DNA of 64,000 nucleotides from an uncultured Candidatus Rokubacteria bacterium. GTDB taxonomy: Bacteria > Methylomirabilota > Methylomirabilia > Rokubacteriales > CSP1-6. This document shows positions 20,202-45,961 of this stretch, in pieces. Under the pieces are notes generated by a model, which was not told where the DNA came from, did no database searches, and saw only the letters and a program-made list of their open reading frames with translations. Each line of letters opens with the position of its first letter. The stretch's first letter is position 1. Made by a program: the position numbers and the translations under genes. The stretch lies in assembly GCA_963841755.1 (NCBI GenBank), contig CAWJDX010000009.1, positions 10,880-74,879 of the forward strand, written 5' to 3'.

Positions 20202-21741
20202 ATGGCCCACCGGTCCTCCCTCGTCCGCCGGCTGATCCCCCTCCTCGGCGCCGCACTCTGGCTGGCCGTCGCCGGCCCCGCGGACGCCGCGCCCGGAGGG
20301 CACGCTGACGATCGCGATGCACTTCAGCCCGGTCACGCGCTGGCTCGATCCGGCCGAGGGCGAGAGCACGATCACGCCCTATCTCATGCTGGCCGCCCTG
20401 CACGACGGGCTGCTCCGGCCCACCGCGGGCCAGGCCTCCGCGCCGAGCCTGGCCGAGTCGTGGGCGATGGCGAAGGACATGACGAGCGCCGAGTTCACCC
20501 TGCGAAAGGCGAAGTTCCACAACGGGGACCCGGTGACCGCGGAGGACGTGAAGTTCTCCTTCGAGCGCTACCGCGGCGGCGCGGCCAAGGTGCTGAAGGA
20601 CGGCGTGAAGGAGATCCAGGTGCTCGCGCCGAACCGGGTGCGGTTCGTGTTCAAGGAGGCCTGGCCCGACTTCCCCGCGTTCTACGGCACGTTCGTGGCC
20701 AGCGCGGGCTGGGTGGTGCCGAAGAAGTACTTCGAGCGGGTCGGAGAGGAAGGCTATCGCAAGGCGCCGGTCGGGGCCGGGCCCTACAAGTTCGTGAGCT
20801 TCAACCCGGGCGTGGAGCTGGTCGTCGAGGCGTTCGACGGCTACTGGCGAAAGCAGCCGTCCATAAAAAGAATCGTCTTCCGCAGCCTGCCCGACGAGAC
20901 CACGCGCGCGGCCGCGCTCAAGAGCGGCGAGGTGGACCTGGCCATGCTGCTGAGCGGTCCCACCGCGCAGGAGATCAAGCGGACGCCGGGCCTGCGCCTG
21001 GCCGCGCCGCTGCTCGGCGTCTTCTGGCTCGACTTCCCCGACCAGTGGGATCCGAAGTCGCCCTGGGCGGACAAGCGCGTGCGGCAGGCCGCGAGCCTCG
21101 CGCTGGACCGCCAGGCCCTGAACGAGGCGGAGACGCTGGGGCTCTCGCGCCCGGTCGGGAACACCGTCCCGCGCGACTACGAGTTCGCGCTGCCGGTGGA
21201 GCCGCCTCCTTATAATCCCGCCCGCGCCCGCCAGCTCCTGGCCGAGGCCGGCTACCCGAACGGCTTCGACGCGGGCGAGCTGACCCCGTTCCCGCCCTAC
21301 AACTCGATGGGCGAGACCATCCAGGGGTGGCTCCAGGCGGTCGGCATCCGCACGCGCGTCCGCGCCATGGAGCGCGGGGCGTTCATGACGTCGTGGCGCG
21401 AGAAGAAGCTCCACGGGGTGGTTCTGACCATCAGCGGCGTCTCCGGCAACGCGGCCACCCGGCTCGAGTCGTTCGTCACCAAGGGCGGGGCGTTTTCCTT
21501 CGGCTCGCTGCCCGAGGTGGACGAGCTGTTCCGCCGGCAGGCCGGCGAGCTGGACCGCAAGAAGCGCGAGGCCCTGCTCCACCAGATCCAGCGCATCCTC
21601 CAGGAGCAGGTCATCCAGGCCCCGATCTACCATCTGGGCTTTCCGATCGGGGTGGGGCCCCGCGTGGACGACATCATGGCCACCGCCATCCCCGGTTTCT
21701 ACATGTCCCCCTACGAGGATCTGAAGCTCCGACGCCCCTGA
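20202..21741 (+). CDS. Orphan family-5 (peptide/nickel-type) ABC substrate-binding protein; frameshift near 20295
   Basis: FHNGDPVTAEDVKFSF, PVGAGPYKF and QWDPKSPW..RVRQA. One extra G separates the signal peptide from the rest. Confidence 0.88.
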
Positions 21742-21814: not shown

Positions 21815-22678
21815 ATGCGATACGAGGCGCCGGATTCGTTGGAAGGGGCGGTGGCCCTGCTGGCAGGGGCCCAGGGTGAGGCCCGGGTGCTGGCGGGGGG
21901 GACCGACCTCCTGGTCCAGATGCGGGCCGACGTGCTGGACCCCGAGCTGATCGTGGACATCAAGAAGATCAAGGAGACCCGGGCGGTTACCGAGGAGAAG
22001 GGCGGCTGGCGCATCGGCGCCGCGGTCACCGGGGCGGAGCTGAAGGAGCACGCGCGGCTCAAGAAGGCCTGGCCGGGCGTGGTCGAGGCCGCGAACCTCA
22101 TCGGGTCCACCCAGGTGCAGGGCCGCGCGACTCTGGGCGGCAACCTCTGCAACGGCTCGCCGGCGGCGGACAGCGTGCCCGCGCTCATCGCGGCGGGGGC
22201 GGTGGCCACCCTGATCGGGCCCAAGGGCAAGCGCGACCTCCCGGTGGAGGACGTCATGCTCGGGCCGCGCAAGCTGGCGCTGCAGAAGGGCGAGATCGTC
22301 GCCTCGTTCCTGCTGCCGCCCCGGGCGGCGCGGTCGAGCGACGCCTACCTGCGCTTCATCCCGCGGACGGAGATGGACATCGCGGTGGTGGGGGCGGGGG
22401 TAAGCTTGACGGTGGACGGCGCCGGCCTCATCACCGCGGCCCGCGTGTCGCTGGGCGCGGTGGCCGCGCGGGTGCTGCTGGTGGCGGAGGCGGCCCAGGC
22501 CATCGTGGGCAGCCGGCTCGACGCGCCGGCGCAGGAGCGGCTCGAGGCGGCGGCGCGGGCGACCTGCCGTCCCATCGACGACAAGCGGGGCACGGTGGAA
22601 TTCCGAATCCAGGTCGCGGGCGTGCTGGCACGCCGGGCGGCCCTGATCGCGCTGGACCGGGCGAGGAGCAACAACTGA
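21815..22678 (+). CDS. FAD-binding medium subunit of a xanthine-oxidase-family enzyme (CoxM-like)
   Basis: LAGGTDL, ATLGGNLCNGSPAADS and PIDDKRGT motifs. Confidence 0.92.
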   Translation: MRYEAPDSLEGAVALLAGAQGEARVLAGGTDLLVQMRADVLDPELIVDIKKIKETRAVTEEKGGWRIGAAVTGAELKEHARLKKAWPGVVEAANLIGSTQVQGRATLGGNLCNGSPAADSVPALIAAGAVATLIGPKGKRDLPVEDVMLGPRKLALQKGEIVASFLLPPRAARSSDAYLRFIPRTEMDIAVVGAGVSLTVDGAGLITAARVSLGAVAARVLLVAEAAQAIVGSRLDAPAQERLEAAARATCRPIDDKRGTVEFRIQVAGVLARRAALIALDRARSNN

Positions 22679-23154
22679 TGGCCAAGCACCACATCGAGGC
22701 GACGGTGAACGGAGACGCGGTCGAGTTCCTCTGCGAGACGGAGGACACGCTGCTCGACGTGCTGCGCGACACGCTCAACATGACCGGCAGCAAGGAAGGC
22801 TGCGCCTCCGGCGACTGCGGGGCGTGCAGCGTCATGCTGGACGGGCGGCTGGTCTGCTCCTGCCTGGTGCTGGGCTGCGAGGTCTCCGGCCGCAAGGTCG
22901 AGACCATCGAGGGCATGGCCAAGGGCGAGTCGCTGCACCCGCTGCAGCAGCAGTTCTTGAAGAGCGCCGCGCTCCAGTGCGGCATCTGCACCCCGGGCGT
23001 GCTGGTGGCCTCCAAGGCCCTGCTCGAGCGGTCGCCCGACCCGACGGAGACCGAGGTGCGCTACTGGCTGGCCGGCAACCTGTGCCGGTGCACGGGCTAT
23101 GACAAGATCGTGAGCGCGGTGATGGACGCGGCCGCGACTATGAGAAAGGGCTAA
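22678..23154 (+). CDS. (2Fe-2S) small subunit (CoxS-like)
   Basis: GCASGDCGACS..C, QCGICT and NLCRCTGY motifs. Confidence 0.93.
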   Translation: MAKHHIEATVNGDAVEFLCETEDTLLDVLRDTLNMTGSKEGCASGDCGACSVMLDGRLVCSCLVLGCEVSGRKVETIEGMAKGESLHPLQQQFLKSAALQCGICTPGVLVASKALLERSPDPTETEVRYWLAGNLCRCTGYDKIVSAVMDAAATMRKG

Positions 23155-23158
23155 CGCC

Positions 23159-25457
23159 ATGGCCGAGACGAACGGACACGCGAACGGACACACCAACGGG
23201 GGCTTTGTCGGCACGCGCCAGATCCGACCGGACGGGGTCGACAAGGTGACCGGGCGCGCCCGCTTCGGGGCCGACTTCAACCTGCCCGGCCAGCTCATCG
23301 GCCGCGTGCTGCGCAGCCCGCACCCGCACGCGCGTATCGTCTCGATCGACACCTCGAAGGCGGAGGCGCTGCCCGGGGTGAAAGCCGTCATCACCAGAGA
23401 AGACTTCGGCGATCAGCCGTCCGAGTTCATCCCGGCCGGCGAGATGATGATGAACTACAAGGACGTGGTGCGGAACGTGATGGCCCGCGAGAAGGTGCTC
23501 TACGAGGGCCACGCGGTGGCCGCGGTCGCCGCCACCACCACCGCCATCGCCCGGCGCGCGCTCAAGCTCATCGACGTGAAGTACGAGGTGCTCCCGCACG
23601 TGATCGACGTGGTCGAGGCCATGCGCCCCGACGCGCCCGCTGCTGCACGACGACCTCTTCACGGTGGGCGTCGAGCCCAAGCCCGAGAAGCCCTCCAACA
23701 TCGCCAAGCGGGTCGAGATCAAGGTGGGCGACGTGGAGGCCGGCTTCAAGAAGGCCGACCTGATCGTGGAGCGGGAGTTCAAGACCGCGCCGGTGCACCA
23801 GGGCTACATCGAGCCGCACGCGGCCCTGGCCACCGTGTCCGAGGACGGCGCCACCGAGCTGTGGACCACCACCCAGGGCCACTTCATCGTGCGCGCCCAC
23901 TGCGCGCGGCTGCTCGGCCTCGACATGGGCCAGGTCCGCGTGACCGCCACCGAGATCGGCGGCGGCTTCGGCGGCAAGACGGTGGTCTACCTCGAGCCGC
24001 TCGCCATCGCGCTGTCCCGGAAGGCCAAGCGGCCGGTCAAGATGGTGATGTCGCGCGAGGAGGTCTTCAAGTCCTCCGGTCCGACGTCGGGCGCGACGGT
24101 CCGGGTGAAGATGGGCGCCACCAAGGATGGCAAGTTCGTGGCCGGCTTCGCGGAGCTCAAGTACCAGGCGGGCGCCTTCCAGGGCTCGCCGGTGCAGCCC
24201 GGCACCATGTGCGCCTACGCCCCCTACGACATGGAGAACGTCCACGTCATCGGCTACGACGTGGTGTCGAACCGTCCCAAGGTGGCGGCCTATCGCGCTC
24301 CCGGCGCGCCGATCTCGGAGTACGCGGTCGAGAGCGTGGTGGACGAGATCGCCAAGAAGCTCGGCCTCGACCCCATCGAGCTGCGCATGATGAACGCGGC
24401 CCACGAGGGGACGAAGGCGGCCTACGGGCCGAAGTTCGGGCCCATCGGCCTCGAGGAGACGCTCAACTCGATCAAGAAGACCGAGCACTGGAACACCCCG
24501 CTGCGGAAGTGGCAGGGCCGCGGGGTGGCCTCCGGCTTCTGGTTCAACATCGGCGGCGAGACCTCGGTCTCGCTCACCGTGAACGAGGACGGCACCATCT
24601 CGCTGATGGCCGGCACCCCGGACATCGGCGGCCTGCGCGCCGCGCTCACCTCGGTGGTCGCCGACGAGCTGGGCGTCCCGTACGACAAGGTGCGGCCGAT
24701 CATCGGCGACACCGGGTCGGTCAGCTTCAACTTCCTCACCGGCGGCAGCCGCTCCGCGTTCTCGGGCTCGATGGCCATCGTGGAGGCGGCCAAGCAGATC
24801 AAGAACGAGCTGATCGCGCGGGCCTGCAAGCTGTGGGAGGCCAAGCCGGACCAGGTCGAGTTCAAGGACGGCGCGGTGCGGCCGCTCGGCGCGCTCGCCG
24901 AGAAGGTCAAGCCGATGACCATCGCGGAGTTCGCCAAGATCTCCGGCAAGCTCGGCGGCCCCATCGGCGGCGTCGGGCGCATCAACGCCCAGGGCGCGGG
25001 CCCGAGCTTCGGCACGCACCTGGTGGACCTCGAGGTGGATCCCGAGACCGGGCGGACCACGATCCTGCGCTACACGGTGGCCCAGGACGCGGGCCGGGCG
25101 CTGCATCCGGCCTACGTCGAGGGGCAGTTCCAGGGCGGGGCGGTGCAGGGCATCGGCTGGGCGCTCAACGAGGAGTACATCTACGGCGACGACGGCAAGC
25201 TCCAGAACGCGGGCTTCCTCGACTACCGCATGCCGGTGGCCTCGGACGTGCCGATGATCGACGCGATCCTGGTCGAGGTCGGCAACCCCAAGCATCCGTA
25301 CGGCGTGCGCGGCGTCGGGGAGACGCCGATCGTGCCGCCGCTCGGGGCCATCGCCAACGCCATGGAGAACGCCACCGGCATCCGGTTCACCGAGCTGCCG
25401 ATGTCGCCGCCCAAGGTGCTGAAGGCGCTCAAGGAGCAGGGCCGCAACAAGGCCTGA
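23159..25457 (+). CDS. Molybdopterin-binding large subunit, xanthine-oxidase family; frameshift near 23635
   Basis: DKVTGRA, GGGFGGK, AYRAPG loop, GQFQGG and GVGE. One extra C in gcgcccgc. Confidence 0.9.
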
Positions 25458-25467
25458 GAACCGACGC

Positions 25468-25713
25468 ATGGCGCGAGTGGTGCTGATCGGCAACCTCGCG
25501 CAGCTCACCGGGGGCGTCGCCGAGTTCCAGCTATCGGCGACGTCCGTGAAGCAGCTCTTCCAGCAGCTCGCCGAGCTGCACCCCGCCCTGGGCCCGCACC
25601 TCGAGGAGGGCGTCGCGGTGGCCATCGACGGGCAGATCTACCAGGACACGCTGTTCGAGCCGATCGGCCCCGACAGCGAGGTCTTCGTCCTCCCGCAGAT
25701 CGCGGGCGGGTAG
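25468..25713 (+). CDS. MoaD/ThiS-family ubiquitin-like sulfur carrier
   Basis: 81 aa, AVAIDG, C-terminal PQIAGG. Confidence 0.85.
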   Translation: MARVVLIGNLAQLTGGVAEFQLSATSVKQLFQQLAELHPALGPHLEEGVAVAIDGQIYQDTLFEPIGPDSEVFVLPQIAGG

Positions 25714-25797: not shown

Positions 25798-25810
25798 AAC
25801 GGAGGCGTCA

Positions 25811-26329
25811 ATGGCACGGATGGAGCCGCTCGGGATTCACGAGGTCGACGACCAGATCCGGCACATGTGCGAGGAGTCGGAGCGCCAGATCGGCACCTCG
25901 GCCAGCACGCGCACGTACGCCCGCAACCCGATGGTGGTCAAGGCGCTCGCCGCCTTCCGCGGCACCCTGACCCGCGAGGGGACGATCGACCCGGTCGTCC
26001 TGGAGCTGGTGCGGATCAAGATCGCGGGGCTCAACGCCTGTCGCTACTGACTCAAGGCGCGCTATGCCGGGGCCCGGCATGCGGGAGCGACCGAGCAGAA
26101 GATCGCCGCGATCAACGACGAGACGTCCACGCTGCTGACCCCGAGGGAGCGGGCCGCGGTCCGCTTCGCCGAGAAGCTCGCGGTGGATCACCAGAAGGTC
26201 GACGACGAGCTGTGGGCCGAGGTGCGCGCCCAGTTCTCGGAGGCCGAGGTGATCGAGCTGGTGGCGCACACCACGCTCTACATCGGGTTCGGCCGGTTCA
26301 ACGAGATCGTGGGGATCGACCCGGCCTAG
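25811..26329 (+). CDS. AhpD/carboxymuconolactone decarboxylase-like selenoprotein (CxxU)
   Basis: In-frame TGA at 26048-26050 in NA-C-R-Y-U. The same frame continues 92 codons with CMD-like LTPRERAAVRFAE..FSEAEVIEL..GFGRFN to TAG. SECIS-like hairpin follows. Confidence 0.85.
26060..26083 (+). promoter_or_regulatory. Putative bacterial SECIS element
   Basis: CGC, bulged U, AUGCCGG-[GGC]-CCGGCAU, GCG. The loop starts 21 nt after the UGA. It uses codons (tat, cat, gga) that are uncommon in neighbouring genes. Confidence 0.7.
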
Positions 26330-26342
26330 CGGGATCCGGGCG

Positions 26343-27860
26343 ATGACGACCGGCCGGCGGCTCGTCATCGTCTTCGTGGTCGACGGCCTCCGGCCCGACT
26401 CCATCACCGCCGAGGACACGCCCACCCTCTTCCGCCTGCGCGCGGAGGGCGTGAGCTTCGCGGACAGCCACGCGGTCTTCCCCACCGTGACCCGCGTCAA
26501 CGCGGCCGCGCTCTCGACCGGGACCCAGCCGGGCACCAGCGGCCTCCTCGGCAACCAGCTCTACCTGCCGGCCGTCGATCCCCGGCGCGCGGTCGACACC
26601 GGCAACTACCGGAACCTCCTCGCGCTCGACCAGGCCACCGGCGGGCGGCTGCTCATGGCGCCCACGCTGGCCGAGCGGCTGCACGCGCGCGGGCACCGGC
26701 TGGTCGGGGTCAGCTCGGGCTCGACGGGCAGCGCGTTCCTCCTGAACCCGAAGGCGCCGTCCGGAGTCGGCGCGGTCGTGAACGGCTACTTCGATCCCGG
26801 CAAGACCGTCGCCTATCCGGCGCCGGTCAGCGAGGCCATCCTCTCGAAGTTCGGGCCCGCTCCGCCCAAGGCGCCGGGCGGGGCCCGCTACGACGCCTCG
26901 GTCACCTGGACGCAGCGGGTGCTGCGCGAGTACGTGCTGCCGGAGCTCGCGCCCGACGTGGTGATCAACTGGCTGACCGAGCCCGATCACAGCCAGCACC
27001 ACGTGGGCGTGGGCTCGCCCGACGCCCGCGAGGCGCTCCGTCACGACGACGCCGAGATCGCCTCCGTGCTGGCGAGCCTGGACGCGCTGGGCCTGGCCTC
27101 CCGCACCACCGTGCTGGTGGCCTCCGACCACGGGTTCAGCACGAACACCGGCGGAGTCGACGTGGTCGGCGCGCTCGTGGACGCGGGGCTGAAGGCGGCG
27201 CCCGACTCGACCGACGTGATCCTCGCGAGCAGCGGCCAGGCGGTCGCGCTGCACGTGGAGGATCACGACCCGGATCGCATCGCGCGCATCGCCCGGTTCA
27301 TCCAGGCGCAGGATTGGGGCGGGGTGATCTTCACCGCCGGGCGCGCGCCCGGCGAGGCGCGCGGCGCCGTCGACGGCACCTTCGCGCTCGAGCTGATCCA
27401 CGCCGCGAACCCCGAGCGCGGCGCCGACCTCGTCGCCACGTTCCCCTGGAGCTCGCAGCCGAACGCGCACGGGGTGGCGGGGACCGACCTGGCCTGCGTC
27501 AGCGGTGGCGCCCGGCTCTACGCGAGCGATCACGGCAGCATGAGCCCGTGGAACGTGCGCAACACGCTCTTCGCCTGGGGCGCGGGCGTCAAGCAGCGCA
27601 CGACGGTCCGGGTGGCGGCGGGCAACGTGGACGTGACGCCGACGATCCTCGCCCTACTCGGCGTCGACCAGGATCCCGGAGCCTCGACCGGGCTCGACGG
27701 CCGCGTGCTGGCCGAGGCGCTCGAGGGCGGCCCGGATCCCGAGCGGGTGGTGGCCGAGACGCGCGTGCACACCGCGGAGGCCGGCGCGTACCGCGCCGCG
27801 ATCCAGGTGTCCCACGTGGACGGGCGCCGCTACGTGGACAAGAGCTGGCGCGTCCGGTGA
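26343..27860 (+). CDS. Alkaline phosphatase superfamily / nucleotide pyrophosphatase-phosphodiesterase
   Basis: VVDGLRPD, FPTVTRVN (Thr nucleophile), EPDHSQH, VASDHG and SDHG. Confidence 0.85.
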   Translation: MTTGRRLVIVFVVDGLRPDSITAEDTPTLFRLRAEGVSFADSHAVFPTVTRVNAAALSTGTQPGTSGLLGNQLYLPAVDPRRAVDTGNYRNLLALDQATGGRLLMAPTLAERLHARGHRLVGVSSGSTGSAFLLNPKAPSGVGAVVNGYFDPGKTVAYPAPVSEAILSKFGPAPPKAPGGARYDASVTWTQRVLREYVLPELAPDVVINWLTEPDHSQHHVGVGSPDAREALRHDDAEIASVLASLDALGLASRTTVLVASDHGFSTNTGGVDVVGALVDAGLKAAPDSTDVILASSGQAVALHVEDHDPDRIARIARFIQAQDWGGVIFTAGRAPGEARGAVDGTFALELIHAANPERGADLVATFPWSSQPNAHGVAGTDLACVSGGARLYASDHGSMSPWNVRNTLFAWGAGVKQRTTVRVAAGNVDVTPTILALLGVDQDPGASTGLDGRVLAEALEGGPDPERVVAETRVHTAEAGAYRAAIQVSHVDGRRYVDKSWRVR

Positions 27861-44848: not shown

Positions 44849-45961
44849 GTGGTTGACTTTCACCCCGTGGGGCCTCGCTCGACGTGGTGGCGGATCTTCG
44901 AGCGGCCGAGCCTCGGCGGGGTGCTCGCCGGGGTGGCCGTCTGGGTGGTGGTGGTGTCCGCCCTGCACGTCGTCGTCAATCACCGCGGCGCGCTCACTCC
45001 CGGCGCGGAGGCCCGCACCCTGGAGGTGGGCGGCCTGCCGGTCACGTGAAACCTCACGCTGCCGATCGCCAGTCTGGCGATGTCGCGGGACGCGGAGGGC
45101 CGGTCGGTGGTCGACGTGACCCTCGCCGACTCCCCGGCCGAGTACAGCAAGTACAGCGGGTGGCCCGAGCTGAAGGAGTCGTTCATGGCCGGCAAGGTCA
45201 AGGCGGCCTACCTGCTCGCGCCGATGGTGATGGATCTCGTGGAGAGCGGGGTGGACGCCAAGATCGTGTCGCTCGGTCATCGCTCGGGCGCGGTCATCAT
45301 GGTGCGGAAGGACTCGCCCGCGAAGAGCTTCCGCGACCTGCGCGGCCGGCGCATCGCGATCCCGAGCCGGTTCGCGGTCGACCACCTCTTCGTGCGCCGC
45401 ATGCTCAAGGAGAGCGGCATGACCGTCCGCGACGTGGAGCTGGTGGAGATGGCGCCGCCCGAGATGCCGGCCGCCCTCTACGCGGACCAGGTCGACGCCT
45501 ACGCGACCGGTGAGCCGTTCGGGGCGGTGGCGGAGGTGGCGGGCTACGCGCGCCCCCTCTACATGACGCGCGACAAGTGGCCGGACTACGTCTGCTGCGT
45601 GCTCACGGTGCGCCAGGAGCTGATCGACCGCGACCGGCGGCAGGTGCAGCAGATCGTCAACCACGTGCTGTCCGCCGGCGCGTGGCTCGAGACCGCGCAG
45701 GCCAACCGCGACCGGGCCGCCGACATCGCGGCCGGCCCCACCCTGTTCAACCAGCGCGCCGACATCATCAAGCACGTGCTCACCAATCCCCGCGACCGGG
45801 TGACCTACGCGGACCTGCGGCTCATCAAGTCCGAGATGGACGAGCTGATGGAGGCCGCGCTCGAGGCCGGCATCATCCGCCAGCGCATCCCCTACGAGCG
45901 GTACGTGGACGAGAGCTTCCAGCGCGCCGCGCGCCCGGTGGACATCCGTGTGGAGCGGTAG
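44849..45961 (+). CDS. NrtA/CmpA/SsuA-type ABC substrate-binding selenoprotein (in-frame TGA 45047-45049)
   Basis: ORFs 44801-45049 and 45080-45961 share a frame and are separated only by TGA plus 10 sense codons. The joined read is TM anchor, LEVGGLPVT-U-NLTLP, SGWPEL, YLLAPM, GEPF, WPDYVCCVL. Start is GTG 44849 or 44867. Confidence 0.82.
45065..45081 (+). promoter_or_regulatory. Putative bacterial SECIS element
   Basis: AUCGCCA-[GUC]-UGGCGAU perfect 7-bp stem. The loop starts 23 nt after the UGA and includes a rare AGT codon. Confidence 0.68.

Follow-up and report, generated by a model that had tools for sequence, protein, structure and literature searches.

A very probable AhpD/CMD-like selenoprotein gene divided at its in-frame TGA codon in a Candidatus Rokubacteria genome

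Does the TGA at positions 26048-26050 of this DNA end a short open reading frame, or does it encode selenocysteine (Sec) in the middle of a longer gene? The window (the whole stretch of 64,000 nucleotides that was analysed, from an uncultured Candidatus Rokubacteria bacterium) contains an open reading frame of 79 codons at 25811-26050, whose tail reads AAC GCC TGT CGC TAC TGA. Past the TGA, the same frame is open for another 92 codons, and 79 + 1 + 92 gives a product of 172 residues if the TGA is translated. A sequence-only reading of the locus had noticed that the shorter frame stops exactly where the second Cys of a CRY[C] motif belongs, and that 92 codons of CMD-like sequence follow. The coordinates and counts given there are exact, the frame is open up to a TAG codon, and the CMD domain extends across the TGA. 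In our view the locus is, with high confidence, a genuine Sec-encoding AhpD-like gene for a selenoprotein of 172 residues, and standard annotation almost certainly divides it wrongly into two genes at the Sec TGA. The features on which the argument turns are the following:

25801-25805, forward strand: Shine-Dalgarno-like GGAGG, 5 nt 5' of the ATG at 25811 (from reading the sequence)
25811-26329, forward strand: predicted AhpD/CMD-like selenoprotein coding sequence, 172 residues, translated with TGA as Sec; terminator TAG at 26327-26329
26039-26041, forward strand: Cys77 codon TGT, opening residue of the C-R-Y-U redox motif (a near-invariant Cys column in distant homologs)
26048-26050, forward strand: predicted Sec codon U80, an in-frame TGA (kept in orthologs; aligns with the second Cys of CxxC)
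26060-26083, forward strand: predicted bSECIS hairpin (fold, published criteria, synonymous invariance, rare codons and a shared design)

One domain and one fold across the TGA

The Pfam CMD domain (PF02627) matches residues 42-121 as one stretch that includes the TGA, scoring 58.9 bits against a cut-off of 23, and the AhpD core domain of NCBIfam (TIGR00778, ahpD_dom) is also passed (32.1 vs a cut-off of 27.8). An AlphaFold2 model of the readthrough product, built with an input alignment of 23 distant homologs, is all-helical and confident (mean pLDDT 95.8, pTM 0.89). In this model C77 lies immediately before the helix of residues 78-90, and U80 lies within the first turn of that helix. Foldseek comparison with AhpD-type 'peroxidase-related' structures gave TM values of 0.88 to 2oyo and 6k40, and of 0.86 to both 2prr and the debrominase Bmp8, the range of 0.86-0.88 for the solved structures referring to 180-residue forms. 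The product is thus predicted to have the AhpD 'peroxidase-related' fold, with its redox pair at the usual CxxC site at the N-terminus of a helix.

Comparison with Cys homologs had been proposed as a check on the reading of the TGA as Sec, and it agrees with that reading: distant full-length relatives have CxxC at the position of the motif. Cys makes up 90% or more of both motif columns (C77 and C80) across 23 full-length homologs of 26-37% identity, and the C-A-Y-C of PA0269 aligns with C-R-Y-U. One part of the classical active site is different. The His of the CxxCxxxH motif is part of a proton relay in Mycobacterium tuberculosis AhpD, and it is without a counterpart here, since Arg84 aligns with the His of PA0269, four residues past the second Cys. 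The same replacement occurs in an 'R-Y' subgroup of the Cys homologs (CxxCxxxRY). Because Arg84 stands in place of the His, the catalytic detail may differ from that of classical AhpD.

Conservation of the TGA, of both halves and of a hairpin

A search of 251 genomes of the phylum gave a match in 140 of them, and about 70 contained an ortholog, with identities of 52-93%. These approximately 70 orthologs, which come from Methylomirabilota/Rokubacteria and belong to one family, each contain exactly one TGA. The TGA is at codon 80, with intact frames, in 15 species-representative genomes (mostly labelled Methylomirabilota/Rokubacteria), and several metagenome contigs have the same arrangement. 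In the same genomes there are also more distant AhpD-like paralogs, with 30-44% identity, several of which have one TGA. Pairwise dN/dS after the TGA is 0.10-0.46 and does not exceed the value before it; as judged from these comparisons, the part 3' of the TGA is under purifying selection. The orthologous group is limited to one Methylomirabilota/Rokubacteria family, and within that family the Sec codon is apparently obligatory.

Protein databases give a very different impression of the same genes. In an exhaustive HMMER search, all relatives above about 50% identity were fragments broken at residue 79/80, and full-length relatives started at 37% identity or less. A word-indexed protein search likewise returned mostly fragments of about 95 aa, which either end in ...ACRY or start right after the TGA. 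Three JGI proteins of 172 aa that read 'CRYW' (P0002-P0004) contain the same TGA translated as Trp under genetic code 4. Two further proteins of 145 aa (P0005 and P0006) were considered as natural deletions; they are without exactly 27 residues round the TGA, and are read as gene-prediction artefacts. Other 'spliced' predictions, and N-terminal fusions of MoaD-like and CMD sequence that end at the TGA (P0013, P0026, P0027), look like annotation artefacts as well, and the fusion in P0013 could be explained by a single additional G at the stop codon of MoaD. One ortholog, on ENA contig_87831 (L022, 4730-4830), has CGA (Arg) at the Sec codon and a frameshift about 70 nt downstream. We considered this variant as evidence of a form without Sec; because the frameshift accompanies the CGA, it was discounted and is treated as a pseudogene or decaying copy, or as a long-read error.

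These database entries bear on the simplest alternative, which is that the TGA is a true stop and that the locus is either a pseudogene or two small genes, one for the 79-aa N-terminal piece and one for a C-terminal piece. Gene callers annotate the locus in this way, most relatives in the databases are fragments of some 79-95 aa that end in ...ACRY or begin just past the TGA, and TGA is the most frequent stop in the genome. Against this, about 70 genomes have the same TGA, at identities as low as 52%, the downstream half is kept by purifying selection, and one CMD domain and one confident fold extend across the TGA. The C-terminal piece is also without a visible means of expression: between the TGA and 26183 there is no in-frame ATG, GTG or TTG, and no ribosome-binding site, so the downstream half could not be made by itself. 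Finally, a conserved SECIS-type hairpin follows the TGA, as described below. A consistent split of the homologs into two genes would have been the mark of a true stop; what is found in the orthologs is one in-frame TGA in a single frame with both halves conserved. Taken together, we regard a true stop as barely credible, and Sec decoding remains the preferred reading.

The hairpin had been seen in the sequence-only reading as one with a bulged U and a G-containing loop, and it is present at 26060-26083. Its lower stem pairs CGC with GCG (26060-62 and 26081-83), a bulged U follows at 26063, and the upper stem pairs AUGCCGG with CCGGCAU over 7 bp (26064-70 and 26074-80), closing a GGC loop at 26071-73. 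The upper stem starts 13 nt past the UGA, which places the loop 20 nt from it. Folding was calculated at -9.7 kcal/mol for the core alone and at -14.5 kcal/mol once the bulged U and the lower stem are included. In the published bSECIS consensus, the loop has 3-9 nt and the stem 4-16 bp, at least one of the first two loop nucleotides is G, the loop lies 16-37 nt past the UGA, and the minimum free energy is -7.5 kcal/mol or lower (PMC13188914). The hairpin agrees with all four of these requirements in its GGC loop, 7-bp stem, 20-nt distance and energy, and this check too came out in favour of Sec. A perfect 7-bp stem with a triloop that starts with G, within 10-18 nt of a given TGA, has an expected frequency of about 0.26% in this genome.

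Folding energy is a different matter. The 71-nt region folds no better than shuffled sequence (z = 0.10), and in such GC-rich DNA energy alone is for this reason not evidence; it was dropped here as a criterion for a SECIS element. The case for the hairpin therefore rests on conservation and architecture. Among 18 distinct orthologous sequences, synonymous variation was compared in degenerate codons whose amino acid is invariant: none of the 6 such codons among codons 84-89 varies, vs 52 of 66 (79%) elsewhere (P ~9e-5). Two codons in the stem are rare ones, Tyr85 being TAT (8.4% of the Tyr codons of the genome) and His90 being CAT (11% of the His codons), and in both of them the third base forms a stem pair with the middle base of the codon opposite, so that the rare codons are needed for the pairing. 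The stem encodes A-G-A-R, residues that do not change within the Sec clade but vary among Cys homologs. In one divergent ortholog, the fourth pair of the stem has changed from C-G to G-C, at the cost of an Arg to Pro substitution.

Across an alignment of 29 distinct sequences, 91% of the cells in the hairpin are paired, while the outermost pairs (13-36 and 17-33) are frequently unpaired. This one compensatory event in the 29 sequences is not significant as covariation on its own, as 26 of 500 shuffles reach the same count. Conservation of the hairpin in these sequences is mainly by invariance. Rfam and tRNA scans of the window gave no match, and among the Rfam models no generic bacterial SECIS match was obtained.

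Selenocysteine machinery and other candidate Sec genes in the genome

For UGA to be read as Sec, the organism needs the corresponding machinery, and a lack of it had been named in advance as a result that would speak against the gene. Its components are present, with selA in a frameshifted form. The genome, which is assembled in 32 contigs, contains a tRNA-Sec with a UCA anticodon (71.3 bits), and about 1.4 kb downstream of it selA and selB lie adjacent to each other, selB scoring 369.6 bits. A selD gene with an in-frame TGA of its own is found elsewhere (338.9 bits). The selA gene (C2:200218-201571) is present as well, but a change of frame near C2:200,912 breaks it in this assembly. A single frame holds the whole of selA in 10 of 12 genomes of the genus, and the window contains a second frameshift of the homopolymer type; for these two reasons the selA break is read as probably an assembly error. 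If it were real, it would conflict with the many conserved Sec genes.

The second frameshift is in the gene for the large subunit of a molybdenum hydroxylase (23159-25457), where the frame changes after ...AMRPDAP, at 23625-23645. A relative (L031) reads ...AMRPGAPLLHDDLF... in one frame, and the window has apparently one extra C in a run of C, which looks like a homopolymer-type assembly error.

It could then be asked whether sequencing or assembly wrongly introduced the TGA itself into this metagenome-assembled genome, the true codon being TGC or TGT. The assembly does have single-base indel errors in conserved genes (selA and the large subunit of the molybdenum hydroxylase), and the ortholog on ENA contig_87831 has CGA at this codon together with its frameshift. 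However, the errors seen are indels and not substitutions, and dozens of assemblies made independently, in different studies, have an identical TGA, which makes a read error at this codon implausible. Its probability is so small as to be negligible.

Another possibility is that the TGA is read through without Sec, by near-cognate insertion of Trp or Cys or by a local reassignment as in genetic code 4. The JGI pipeline has in fact translated close homologs with TGA as W, and the selA frameshift in the assembly, if real, would block the synthesis of Sec-tRNA. On the other hand, homologs have a catalytic Cys, and not Trp, at the aligned position. TGA also ends most genes in this genome: it is the commonest stop of the long open reading frames (1635 of 2764), and is therefore not generally reassigned. 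The presence of tRNA-Sec, selB and selD, with selA intact in the rest of the genus (10 of 12 genomes), and the resemblance of the hairpin to those of selD and a formate dehydrogenase gene, also speak against readthrough without Sec, which we consider extremely unlikely. Sec insertion is thus retained as the explanation of the TGA. The earlier suggestion was judged correct in taking this gene as support for Sec decoding by the organism.

Similar hairpins follow other in-frame UGA codons. In selD, the UGA is followed by 13 nt and an 8-bp stem with a GAUC loop, and in a formate-dehydrogenase-like gene (...QARIUHSSS...) by 12 nt and a 7-bp stem with a GGC loop. A second gene in the window with an in-frame UGA, for a solute-binding protein (SBP), has 15 nt between the UGA and AUCGCCA-GUC-UGGCGAU, a 7-bp stem with a GUC loop (45047-45081). 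From these sequences, a SECIS design that is typical of the lineage can be proposed: a UGA, 12-15 nt, a stem of 7-8 bp, and a small loop that starts with G.

A crude genome-wide scan for this hairpin design, limited to sites where the frame is open both before and after the TGA, gave 52 matches, and about 12 of them have a coding-type GC3 of at least 0.88 on both sides. Some of the loci that were seen are worth describing. At C26:8204, on the reverse strand, there is a second AhpD/CMD-like gene, whose in-frame TGA gives the motif N-R-C-V-H-U; 13 nt past the TGA, a stem of 7 bp closes a GUU loop. This gene and the nearest Cys homologs are also below all NCBIfam equivalog cut-offs. In five paralogs from the hairpin scan, an in-frame TGA falls within (S/G)-(A/G)-D-U-G-S-C-(T/S)-S-(W/G)-S and has a hairpin of the same type at +12, and by this motif they may be of the 'UGSC-containing' selenoprotein type:

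C5:279613: UGSC-motif paralog
C5:285617: UGSC-motif paralog
C10:150484, reverse strand: UGSC-motif paralog
C17:145586, reverse strand: UGSC-motif paralog
C4:346855, reverse strand: UGSC-motif paralog

Two more genes (C11:23547 and C8:34932) read P-(S/T)-U-P-(V/F)-C through an in-frame TGA that has its hairpin at +11, and look like Prx/Trx-type UxxC selenoproteins as far as their motifs go. At C5:7702 and, on the reverse strand, C2:246950, a TGA is followed by a near-identical TCTYCCC...GGGGAGA hairpin and by similar downstream 'peptides' (...P.GRGQ); these two sites may belong to Sec genes, but they may equally be terminators or two copies of one repeat.

Placement in the family, gene neighbourhood and possible function

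AhpD-like selenoproteins with a CxxU motif have been described before. In the GOS survey, Zhang and Gladyshev (2008) reported 'AhpD-like 1' (COG2128) and 'AhpD-like 2' (pfam02627) as CxxU selenoproteins (PMC2398784), a 2026 catalogue has four AhpD-related entries including 'AhpD-like protein' (TIGR01926) and 'CMD-like protein' (PF02627) (PMC13188914), and BSepDB lists an AhpD-like family. All three sources agree with the statement at the outset that such proteins are known from environmental selenoproteomes. The present gene resembles the AhpD-like and CMD-like CxxU selenoproteins in its PF02627 domain, in the Sec at the second motif position, in having Cys homologs, and in a predicted SECIS directly downstream. 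It differs from the AhpD-like entry in scoring 46.5 with TIGR01926, vs a cut-off of 81.8, and it differs from the many members of these families that have the His in having Arg84, and in forming an orthologous group of its own in one Methylomirabilota family.

Among the curated NCBIfam models, the best match is NF053654 ('GroundWater_YciW', a YciW-related (seleno)protein), which belongs to the same wing of the superfamily and gives an end-to-end alignment, with residues 1-164 on positions 1-166 of the 179 in the model. The score of 76.6 bits is however far from the equivalog cut-off of 310. Scores are lower still for NF041238 (AhpD_rel_CFYUT; 21.1 bits vs a cut-off of 175) and for the GSU3128 family NF041047 (24.7 bits vs 110). 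With all NCBIfam candidates below their cut-offs, the gene was not assigned to a curated selenoprotein equivalog.

The closest solved structures tell a similar story. PA0269 of Pseudomonas aeruginosa (2o4d, 2ijc, 7xw1), the Deinococcus 'peroxidase-related' proteins and AhpD (2oyo, 6k40), and Bmp8 (6ohi) have the fold predicted for the product, with a redox pair in the same place. All of these are Cys proteins with 18-31% identity to it, and the substrates known for them are not transferable. AhpD of M. tuberculosis (1knc, 1gu9) is in the same superfamily and shares the CxxC redox motif and the TIGR00778 core model, but is remote, with a TM of about 0.56 and a TIGR00777 score of 13 bits vs 192. 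Compared with the catalogue by domain and motif, the gene thus appears to represent an uncatalogued orthologous group within the known AhpD/CMD-like CxxU selenoproteins.

The surroundings of the gene were considered as a source of information on its function. The neighbours are all on the strand of the Sec gene:

20317-21741, forward strand: family-5 solute-binding protein
21815-22678, forward strand: FAD subunit of an XDH/CODH-type molybdenum hydroxylase
22678-23154, forward strand: 2Fe-2S subunit of the molybdenum hydroxylase
23159-25457, forward strand: Mo subunit of the molybdenum hydroxylase
25468-25713, forward strand: MoaD/ThiS-like protein of 81 aa with a C-terminal GG
26343-27860, forward strand: type I phosphodiesterase / alkaline-phosphatase-like protein

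The order Mo subunit, MoaD-like protein, CMD-Sec gene and phosphodiesterase is found in 12 of the 17 related loci compared, and holds only in the close relatives. In orthologs with 78-83% identity this gene order is lost, and in the neighbourhoods that were read, both these and the more divergent orthologs adjoin unrelated genes. No peroxiredoxin, thioredoxin, AhpC or lipoyl-protein partner was found near the gene. At one related locus (L034, 2-1300, forward strand), the DNA about 1.7 kb upstream of the ortholog encodes a fusion of a DedA-like membrane domain with a rhodanese-like one. Because the neighbours are conserved only among close relatives, no functional conclusion is drawn from context.

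The same observations bear on the idea that the Sec clade is not a peroxidase, and instead works with the MoaD/ThiS-like carrier and the molybdenum hydroxylase, for example in handling S or Se for the Mo centre. The clade has Arg in place of the usual catalytic His, and the gene order is kept in the 12 of 17 loci. Against the idea, the more divergent orthologs do not have this linkage, and nothing else joins these proteins, which makes the idea very unlikely. The likelier reading of the gene is as a redox protein of the AhpD type. The anatomy of the gene and the machinery in the genome suggest that SelB with Sec-tRNA(Sec) would bind the hairpin at 26060-26083 during translation, and that Sec would then be inserted at the UGA (26048-26050) in place of termination, in a SelB-dependent manner. 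In the likeliest chemistry, a selenolate at position 80 would act as the nucleophile on a peroxide, an oxidised partner protein or a small-molecule disulfide. Cys77 would resolve Sec80 as a selenenylsulfide, and a reductant would then recycle the pair. The function as a peroxidase or reductase is inferred from family membership only, and any specific substrate would be considerably less sure than the Sec gene itself.

The gene leaves the current understanding of Sec biology unchanged. As a well-delimited group of AhpD-like proteins with an obligate Sec, outside all NCBIfam equivalogs, it is a useful but incremental addition to what is known. It also corrects a systematic annotation error, as the public entries for this group are almost only fragments of about 79-95 aa, 'spliced' predictions, or translations with TGA as Trp. 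Methylomirabilota are reported to have the largest predicted bacterial selenoproteome, with 63 selenoprotein genes predicted in one metagenome-assembled genome (PMC13188914). For this organism, the shared SECIS design can be used for finding the remaining selenoproteome, about a dozen candidates having come from the crude scan, and the gene gives independent support for UGA being read as Sec at many genes of this Methylomirabilota genome.
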